Virus genome (UHGV): UHGV-0099331
Strand: one strand, 5' to 3'
Length of the DNA stretch: 18,860 bases
DNA from: a virus
Shown one piece after another: positions 15,082-16,653 of the stretch. A program made the position numbers and the translations under genes. The notes under the pieces were generated by a model. That model did not search any database, was not told the DNA's origin, and was given only the letters and a program-made list of their open reading frames with translations. Position 1 is the stretch's first letter; the number at the start of each line of letters is the position of its first letter.

Positions 15082-15218
15082 TTATTAAATTCTCCACTTT
15101 ATTTTGACTGACAATAACGGTTGCTAAGGCATAGAGTAAAGCTTAATTTAAAAGGCAGTTCTATGCCCATTTACCATAACTTCTCCCTTGTCCAGAAAGC
15201 AATATTTATTAATAAAAT

Positions 15219-16175
15219 TTATTTACCCTTATTATACTCTTCAGTAATCTTATTCATGGATGATATATATTTATCCAGCCCACCATAGTTGGCTATCATT
15301 CGAAATGAATTACGGTACTCTGCCATTTTCACATCATGATTAGTAATTCCACACCAGCCACAAACTTTATTTTCCATGTTTAAAGGCTCATAACATTTTT
15401 TACATTGCCTTGATGCAGGTATTATATTGCCATTAATAAATTGGTGTGATTTGAGATTTTGAGATAAAAGAAATGGTGTAGTTGTTGTTTTTCCTATTAC
15501 CATTTCGAAATATCTACATTTAGCCTTTTTAGCTAAAGATTGAATTTTCTGCTTTAATAAATCATTTGATTTGTGCCCAACTATAACTCCAGTTATACAA
15601 TTAATCGGTACCGGAAGGAGCATAAGATTGTCATTCAGTTTAGTAAGTGCTTTCTCATTAATTATTACGCGACGTTCCTGCTCATAACTCCAGCAAGTTT
15701 GTTTTGTCAAATATGCGGCTGTCATTATACAGGATTGTAGCCAGTAGATATAACGAGGTTTACAGATATGAAATGCTCTCGCCAGAATGTCTTCAATACC
15801 TGTATCTGGAGAATCTTTATATTCAACATCTGCTATTGAACTATGATCCTGGAAGCCGATTTCATCCAAATACTTTTTAAACTTCTCCTCATTAATCTCT
15901 ATTACAAAACCAGAAGAATTACCTGCATAATGTGCCCACATAGGTGGTATCACAGGGCTTTTCGTAAAACAAGTTGCTGGTTGTTTTGTAACCATGCCAA
16001 TCATTTCATTGTAAAATGCTAACTCATCAGAACCGCGATTAAAATCAATAGTAAGGAAAAACTCATAGGGATCATTATATTCATGTAAATGAGAGAATTT
16101 TATTCCTATATGTGTTTCATCCATCATCAATTTATCAATTATATCCGCTCCCATAAACTTATACAAATTGGTCAT
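15219..16175 (-). CDS. DUF2971-like protein with C-terminal zinc ribbon (cargo gene, AT-rich)
   Basis: ATG at 16175 with AAGGAG at 6 nt (318 aa). Motifs LYKF...FSHLHEYNDPYEF, CFTKSP...MWAHYAG and CWSYEQERR fit my recollection of DUF2971; C-terminal CKKCYEP...CGWCG. Markedly AT-rich. Confidence 0.6.
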   Translation of the reverse strand: MTNLYKFMGADIIDKLMMDETHIGIKFSHLHEYNDPYEFFLTIDFNRGSDELAFYNEMIGMVTKQPATCFTKSPVIPPMWAHYAGNSSGFVIEINEEKFKKYLDEIGFQDHSSIADVEYKDSPDTGIEDILARAFHICKPRYIYWLQSCIMTAAYLTKQTCWSYEQERRVIINEKALTKLNDNLMLLPVPINCITGVIVGHKSNDLLKQKIQSLAKKAKCRYFEMVIGKTTTTPFLLSQNLKSHQFINGNIIPASRQCKKCYEPLNMENKVCGWCGITNHDVKMAEYRNSFRMIANYGGLDKYISSMNKITEEYNKGK

Positions 16176-16261
16176 ATACAACTCCTTTTTTATAAAATAA
16201 CATTTTAAATCATATGATTATGGAGGCACAAAATCCAGTAATTAGTTTTCAAGCCTGTTGT

Positions 16262-16626
16262 GATGTAGTTCGAGGACAAACTGAAACGTATTATTGATAA
16301 CAGTCGCGATAACGTTGCCTGCCCGTATATCGTTCACCGTATACCGAGCGTAATAACAAACGCAGTAAAGAGGTATCCGCACCTGCCTATCTTAGCCATA
16401 CTTTTCATTGCCCCGTGATTCGTTAGGCTTGTGTAATAATTTGACGATGGAGCTGCGCCCCCACATTCCACAAAATACGCGCACTAGCTGCATTTTGTTT
16501 GATAAACAGGGAGTAGACCACAAGGGCTTATAGCCCACAGCGACGCGAAATCAACGAAAATTTATACGCGGAACCATATGATTGGGTAATGCTTCCGCAC
16601 GGTGAAATTAAATATAATGCATAATA
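16262..16626 (+). pseudogene. Integrase 3'-end remnant (degraded duplicate of the int C-terminal region)
   Basis: DNA-level similarity to int 14716-15081: shared blocks GAAACG-ATTATTGA-AA-AG-CG-GA-AA, AAACGCAGTAAAGAGGT, GCGA-GCGAAATC-AC-AAAATTTATAC and GAAATTAAA. The conserved stretch translates as KLKRIIDNSRDNVA (int has LKRIIDNSRDNVA); the central part is degenerate and lacks an intact frame. Confidence 0.7.
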
Positions 16627-16653
16627 AAATTGGCCTCAAATGAGGCCAATTTT
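16626..16653. terminator. Bidirectional Rho-independent terminator
   Basis: 10 bp stem ATTGGCCTCA / TGAGGCCAAT with A-run and T-run on either side; lies between the int remnant and the stop of the minus-strand operon. Confidence 0.6.

Follow-up and report, generated by a model that had tools for sequence, protein, structure and literature searches.

The 18,860-nucleotide (nt) stretch analyzed here, UHGV virus genome UHGV-0099331 (called the window, at its full length), contains between the stop codon of an intact integrase gene (int) and the phage attachment site (att) a variable cargo slot of a lambdoid phage family that integrates into tRNA-Pro(GGG). In the window this slot holds two stacked cassettes that were very probably brought together by one non-homologous join between two phage types, here called A and B, and a fragment of a second int marks the seam between them. 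We regard this fragment as a single-origin, ordinary recombination scar in a gene-swapping hotspot. The whole window matched Escherichia coli CT265 (NZ_CP095795.1) at 100% identity and covers the end of a lambdoid prophage that carries its early genes and integration region; this right end lies at tRNA-Pro(GGG). The gene order at the integration end is int on the plus strand, then a gene for a DUF2971 protein (cargo A) and two overlapping genes (cargo B), all three on the minus strand (Table 1).

The slot was delimited by comparison with relatives. In three other E. coli prophages at proL, with int genes 88–92% identical, homology to the window ended at 15068–15080 and restarted at 18107, with unrelated genes between. 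A census covered 80 IMG/VR loci with the window-type int family, in 56 of which the slot content could be judged. An intact int was found in all 80 (in locus L067 as two pieces matching in different frames), and the int fragment in the five window-type copies only. Ten of the 56 slots were empty, the int stop lying 8–25 nt from the motif that opens the P arm of the attachment site, and the isolated phage Flotzy has an empty slot as well. The filled slots fell into 19 cargo sequence clusters and stand for 20 cargo types or more, A and B having been linked into one cluster by the composite in the window. In most family members the slot is empty or carries one cassette converging on int. Matches to defence models among the slot proteins included AbiLi-like AAA_21, HEC-08 (E 7e-166), PDC-S33 RelA/SpoT, PIN_8, PDC-S31, and M78 peptidase, the last with an adjoining open reading frame (ORF) of helix-turn-helix-like appearance; SMODS with SLATT was present as well. 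The region therefore has the features of a hotspot, with conserved flanks (int and the P arm) around unrelated content and with a cargo in which genes of known or candidate defence type are enriched. The two cargoes of the window are probably anti-phage genes expressed from the prophage. Insertion sequence (IS) elements, IS903B and IS1, have repeatedly landed in or beside the slot (L003 3764–4732, L002 7288–7985, and NZ_CP042336.1, hit H116).

Genes for O-antigen modification beside int and attP of Shigella and Salmonella phages are lysogenic-conversion genes. The slot content would resemble them as prophage-expressed cargo at the int/att end, with transcription independent of phage functions, and differs from them in consisting of candidate abortive-infection or defence genes. 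One relative (L097) carries what by sequence appearance is an acyltransferase-like membrane protein. The slot is also comparable to the P2 and P4 hotspots, in which temperate phages and satellites carry defence genes (Rousset et al. 2022, PMC9122126): unrelated, mostly defence-type gene sets occupy a fixed site between conserved genes and are swapped among similar phages. Here, however, the site is bounded by int and by the P arm of attP, the phages are lambdoid and integrate at tRNA-Pro, and the copy in the window holds two cassettes with a gene fragment marking the seam. A previously uncharted and very diverse cargo slot is located in a common enterobacterial tRNA-Pro phage family, and candidate defence genes can readily be drawn from it, the uncharacterised pair at 16659–17799 among them.

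The original prediction had claimed a second, frame-disrupted copy of the int 3' region downstream of the intact gene, and our alignments bear this out. A blastn comparison of int (13897–15081) with positions 15082–18860 gave two collinear matches, int nt 824–928 with window 16279–16383 (73.6%, E 8e-12) and int nt 1060–1176 with window 16498–16612 (73.5%, E 2e-13). A MAFFT alignment of int and the remnant returned the same two conserved blocks, located toward both ends of the copies as had been proposed, together with a 15-nt deletion and four 1-nt indels. With tblastn, int amino acids (aa) 257–381 matched in one frame (E 3e-15) and aa 293–392 in another (E 1e-9), with several in-frame stops; an E value of 3e-15 rules out chance similarity. 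The limits first proposed, 16262–16626 for the remnant and 14716–15081 for its counterpart in int, were approximately right, although their left ends were about 6–19 nt short, and we place the counterpart of the remnant at 14697–15081. The homology falls in the catalytic C-terminal region of the integrase (aa 257–392), and codons ~267 to 394 are all that is present, with no uninterrupted frame encoding the arm-binding and core-binding domains. The stops, the frameshifts, the 15-nt deletion, and the missing N-terminal part identify the remnant as a pseudogene fragment. Public annotation already flags it as a pseudogene; the PGAP label reads 'recombinase; frameshifted; incomplete; missing N-terminus'.

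Both parental arrangements exist in relatives. In A-type loci (L029–31, L053, L054, L057) an intact int is followed by a DUF2971 gene (81–83% aa identity), and in one of them, L030, the P arm starts ~75 nt beyond that gene. In B-type loci (L017–19, L022, L078, L093, L098, L099) an intact int is followed by both cargo B genes (91–94% aa identity); these loci align with window 16279–18325 as one block at 82–87% nt identity, the alignment starting inside their int, and three of them extend far enough for the tRNA-Pro core to be visible. At its 3' end the remnant has codons (GEIKYNA*) that are specific to the B-type int. As the left half of the arrangement in the window is of A type and is joined to a right half of B type, the remnant represents a B-type int 3' end that was severed from the rest of its gene, and the proposal that it is a displaced int end marking the boundary of two cargo units is supported by these relatives. 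The left partner at the junction is the upstream region of cargo A, which is homologous to the ~75-nt stretch from gene to arm in L030 (shuffle p ~0.005). The related tRNA-Pro prophages that we compared either were without the segment at 15.1–16.3 kb or had other cargo in that place, so a segment with an identical junction is not common to all of them.

The composite arose once. Among 5,426 complete E. coli genomes, 52 had int, the DUF2971 gene, the remnant, and the two cargo B genes at >99% identity with an identical junction, and so did five IMG/VR contigs (>99% identity). In a strain of sequence type 131 (ST131), the block ends a ~46-kb prophage that is complete and has an intact tRNA-Pro at its boundary; its head and immunity genes differ from those of the CT265 prophage, and the int, DUF2971, and cargo B proteins are identical. 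The presence of an identical block in different backbones indicates one inherited event and a block that moves between backbones. A diverged copy in T309.Ta3 (DUF2971 98.4%, remnant 83–84%, IS903B between int and the DUF2971 gene) has a remnant with the same left end as in the window but less decayed. We found no intact 'old' int in the complete E. coli genomes, the nearest matches being other remnants at 68%. Strain J2, which lacks the DUF2971 gene, was considered as the ancestral state and rejected, since it is an IS1 deletion derivative; in it, IS1 took out almost the whole prophage and left cargo B in the chromosome. The int scar can thus serve as a dated marker of single origin: it indicates that cargo can accumulate by stacking and not by replacement alone, and that the stacked block then travels among different phage backbones.

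The remnant of CT265 differed from that of T309.Ta3 at 11% of aligned sites, with 30 gap columns in addition; between the same two lineages, the 4-fold degenerate sites of the three flanking cargo genes differed by 5–6% and the non-coding leader by 6%. At the positions where the two remnants differ, the family-consensus base was in T309.Ta3 25 times and in the window 12 times. These values show that the remnant is decaying without constraint, and it has no function. That selection instead keeps it, because it encodes a small protein or a regulatory RNA or is required in place for cargo expression, would agree with its presence in every composite copy and with the conservation of the hairpin at its end, but we consider it extremely improbable. 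The remnant has multiple stops and frameshifts, its divergence is twice that of the neighboring 4-fold sites and includes many indels, and A-type, B-type, and empty-slot phages manage without it. A search of 14900–18860 against Rfam identified no family and gave only a sub-threshold match to the hairpin.

We propose the following origin for the composite. The left cassette, consisting of the DUF2971 gene and its upstream region, would have come from an A-type phage, in which it lay directly between int and the P arm; the right cassette, consisting of the int 3' remnant, the hairpin, the two cargo B genes, their leader, and the P arm, would have come from a B-type phage, in which it lay behind an intact int. 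A single non-homologous join between 16255 and 16256 would have fused the end of the A cassette to codon ~267 of the B-type int, with the breakpoint on the A side at, or no more than ~10 nt from, the expected start of the P arm. The parents may have been joined while two phage genomes replicated in one cell, or as tandem prophages that then underwent a deletion; the type of recombination is something that we infer from the structure of the product, which would have retained both cargoes together with a single working int and a single attP. Several observations weigh against this account. The closest parent found is only ~78–87% identical in nt sequence. Identity to the B-type loci sampled is only ~75% for the remnant (compared with their int 3' ends) and ~90% for the neighboring cargo, so that some later mosaicism has to be assumed. 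Finally, a random join leaves unexplained why two other classes of remnant start at the same point of int.

The tandem route would begin with an A-type prophage inserted beside a resident B-type prophage at proL, after which a deletion of ~40 kb would have removed the inner att and the B prophage as far as codon ~267 of its int. Both parental types share the integration site, and the predicted product is identical to the observed structure; moreover, a P arm, core, and P' arm in sequence, the arrangement found between tandem prophages, are carried by two other remnant-bearing loci (an island in L021 and a 3.0-kb module, both described below). At the junction in the window, though, there is no trace of arm or core, and nothing sets this route apart from recombination between replicating phage genomes; we regard it as possible but somewhat doubtful. 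The att arm and core that separate the units of a tandem array are absent from the window, and a later deletion could have removed them. The missing inner core, which the original prediction took to argue against a simple tandem integration, is thus compatible with tandem lysogeny followed by deletion. The observation behind that argument was correct. We found no second core in 15082–16260 or anywhere else in the window, and no second P arm, chance matches of at most 12 nt excepted; the distance from the int stop to the core, given as 3.1 kb, is 3,157 nt.

The intact int is itself a mosaic. Its 5' ~700 nt are nearly identical to another int group of E. coli proL phages, and its 3' ~480 nt are divergent. 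Compared with the L004-type int, identity was 99.75% over 14197–14601 (a single mismatch), then ~92% (about one mismatch in 12 nt), and 63–80% past 14857. Compared with B-type ints, the identity of the 5' part was ~0.79 and that of the 3' part ~0.75. These comparisons bear on the directional model of the original prediction, in which a foreign int 3' end with the DUF2971 gene recombined in frame into a resident B-type int and pushed the old 3' end downstream. A 3' part with a history different from that of the 5' part is indeed seen in the comparison with the L004 type, and the duplicated segment begins where the remnant begins. Insertion into a resident B-type int, on the other hand, is not supported: the 5' part is no more B-like than the 3' part, the switch in similarity (~14601) lies ~95 nt upstream of the point that matches the start of the remnant, a pairwise breakpoint scan of 67 distinct intact ints gave no recombination peak at that point (codon ~267), and neither a recombinase nor a repeated site belongs to the inserted piece itself. 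We therefore think the directional model quite improbable. The separate history of the int 3' part and the cargo is what an exchange of blocks by homologous crossover, within int and within the arm, would leave. The int of L067 (5199–6384) matched in its two pieces with a meeting point at aa ~258–263, which could be a frameshift or a junction near the same region of int as codon ~267.

Integration of e14 and of phage 21 into icd leaves a duplicated 3' end of the target gene. The window resembles that situation in having a working gene, inserted DNA, and then a displaced, decaying copy of the 3' end of the gene. The icd duplication, however, is made by a site-specific element with its own integrase and att, whereas both are missing from the 1.56-kb piece in the window, where identity between the int copies is only ~70%. 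Integron cassettes are similar in forming tandem cargo units beside an integrase gene; here there is no attC-like repeat at the ends of the units, the integrase is a lambda-type phage Int, and a single two-unit array was seen. Positions 14697 and 16256 share no repeat beyond the int homology, unlike the ends of a site-specific cassette. The integrase pseudogene fragments of mosaic or cryptic lambdoid prophages, which PGAP labels 'recombinase, incomplete', are likewise scars of non-homologous phage joins; the scar in the window differs in having stayed in the slot where it arose, with a working int on one side and attP on the other.

The start of the remnant corresponds to the sequence CA|TG in the intact int. 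Three classes of remnant, 65–68% identical to one another, start within 0–3 nt of this same CA|TG, with that of the window possibly up to 10 nt off, and each is nearest to a different lineage of intact int (88% to L056, 88% to L058, and 81% to L092). One of the other classes is in L021, where the remnant (reverse complement, ~88–91) precedes distant homologues of cargo B. Another is in a 3.0-kb module (L009 5432–8439; also in L007, L008, L010, and L011) that contains a small ORF, an int 3' remnant (~5975), SLATT, SMODS, and an attP-like P arm, core, and P' arm. This module occurs in ~48 E. coli genomes and at two prophage positions that are unrelated, one in the nin region of Qin-like prophages and one beside tail-fibre genes at the lambda att site, with 99.5% identity between them. 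L065 shows the parental arrangement of the module intact (int, SLATT, SMODS, arm, core), and the left half of the module, the remnant excepted, was never found in other contexts.

One explanation for the shared start is an event driven by Int at a secondary site, in which Int occasionally recombines or cuts at CA|TG and so generates units that consist of an int 3' end and cargo and whose left end is always the same. The point resembles the crossover region of the core (B-type CATGTGGCG compared with core CATGGGGTG), and remnants of three different int lineages begin at it. The bases to its left in L021 (CACCGTTA|TG) and in the module (CCCGTCA|TG) are like tRNA-Pro (CCGT[C/T]A), their likeness to the tRNA/attB side, CACCGTCA|TGGGG, having an anchored empirical p of ~0.0095 each, and both have a full P arm, core, and P' arm downstream. 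Against this, the left partner in the window itself is not core-like (score 0) and the P arm is not retained there. The three remnant classes start at this one point of int, yet there is no breakpoint peak at it among the intact ints. Nor is it, of all sequences within int, the one most like the core or arm, and microhomology of the arm start or core with this point as the unique best match was not supported. A scan of IMG/VR for tRNA sequence on the left joined to this point on the right found the two known classes only, and the reciprocal junction, int on the left and tRNA on the right, had no matches there. The GTDB representative genomes contained no fresh junction of tRNA with this point, the exact junction patterns having no matches and the degenerate patterns 11 random ones. 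We consider such an event unlikely. It is correspondingly doubtful that mis-targeted Int events at CA|TG repeatedly cut off units of int 3' end, cargo, and attP that survive as stackable or transplantable defence modules, and there is only a slim chance that the second cassette of the window, the L021 island, and the 3-kb SLATT/SMODS module are examples of them. If the shared breakpoint is indeed Int-made, it would provide a concrete mechanism for cutting defence modules loose from prophages.

Table 1. Features of the window at the integration end of the prophage
Feature	Position	Strand	Remarks
Intact lambda-type tyrosine integrase (int), 394 aa	13897–15081	+	Pfam Arm-DNA-bind_1, Phage_int_SAM, Phage_integrase; PHROG integrase
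Point 'X', CA|TG, at codon ~267 of intact int	14696–14697	+	Equals first base of remnant (alignments)
Variable cargo slot, 3.0 kb	15082–18106	.	From int stop to conserved P arm
Terminator-like hairpin 3' of DUF2971 gene	15153–15168	-	Consensus scan
Cargo A, DUF2971 protein, 320 aa	15219–16181	-	Pfam PF11185 E 1.8e-9; PADLOC PDC-S31 E 4e-22; PGAP start 16175
Upstream (promoter) region of cargo A	16182–16255	.	Homologous to L030 stretch leading into P arm
A/B non-homologous junction	16255–16256	.	Three-way alignments; uncertainty ~10 nt
int 3' remnant, B-type, codons ~267 to stop	16256–16624	+	Pseudogene with frameshifts, stops, 15-nt deletion
Bidirectional-terminator hairpin	16626–16653	.	Perfect 12-bp stem, flanking A and T runs; -18.7 kcal/mol, z -3.7
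Cargo B gene 1, 127–144 aa	16659–17093	-	phrog_5176; no known domain
Cargo B gene 2, 255 aa, TPR-like	17032–17799	-	phrog_17809 E 4e-42; weak Pfam TPR_15, TPR_14, TPR-S
Non-coding region upstream of cargo B	17800–18106	.	ORF-free; conserved with B-type phages
P arm of attP/attR	18107–18237	+	Opens with TGGGGA(G/A)AAAC motif
att core	18238–18283	+	3' 46 nt of tRNA-Pro(GGG), displaced chromosomal copy

The DUF2971-like gene reported between the int stop and the remnant is present, on the minus strand. Its protein scored 39.2 bits against PF11185 (cut-off 22), and it forms a single-gene unit, monocistronic and with its own terminator-like hairpin. A sequence search of the protein against solved structures returned nothing significant. 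The lactococcal DUF2971 protein Aristaios has been shown by experiment to be an abortive-infection antiphage system (PMC11381338), and the DUF2971 domain is predicted to have a DarT/AbiGi-like ADP-ribosyltransferase fold (PMC12522546). Cargo A is therefore a candidate single-gene abortive-infection defence, as judged from its sequence. Compared by domain and length, it is like Aristaios in being a single DUF2971 protein of ~316–320 aa on a mobile element; Aristaios is a lactococcal plasmid system, whereas cargo A is a predicted defence protein of an E. coli prophage.

The two cargo B genes stay together in relatives down to 49–64% aa identity. The 144-aa protein had no match in PADLOC, Pfam, or NCBIfam; with the weak match of gene 2 to the TPR-S 'sensor' domain, the two genes can be considered an uncharacterised candidate defence pair. 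The hairpin between the remnant and cargo B is also conserved behind the intact int of B-type phages. From its position and structure, it appears to be a bidirectional terminator shared by the old int and by the cargo B operon, which runs towards int, and it would still serve cargo B. In E. coli NY1601, 35 nt of the TPR-like gene (window 17322–17356) recur without mismatch in an array of clustered regularly interspaced short palindromic repeats (CRISPR) that lies beside ygcE/queE, indicating that some E. coli acquired a spacer against cargo B DNA.

The position of the att core reads as tRNA-Pro in all 5,426 E. coli genomes, with anticodon GGG, and is followed by the proL terminator and then by the autotransporter gene yejO. 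ARAGORN found no complete tRNA in the window and the 3' fragment alone, so that the core is the displaced chromosomal 3' part (attR). The motif that opens the P arm lies, in its GGGGA form, 145 nt before the T-arm motif of the tRNA in 17 of 29 distinct arm sequences, with variants in the others. The recurring TGGGGA(G/A)AAAC motifs are probably arm-type binding sites for the integrase, and they are similar to CATGGGGTG of the core. The P-arm motif (window 18107–18119) reappears two to three times past the core, in the P' arms of L021 and L009. The yejO gene (window 18385–18860) is truncated or pseudogenised here, as it is in several other strains with a prophage at this att site. The far end of the CT265 prophage (NZ_CP095795.1 1,712,000–1,717,000; L219 20400–25000) is not flanked by yejM and tRNA-Pro; its flank consists instead of IS1, an AraC-family gene, and transposase fragments, followed by ybhB-bioA (the lambda attB region). 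These flanks point to a chromosomal inversion or an exchange between two lambdoid prophages, which would make normal excision of the CT265 copy impossible.

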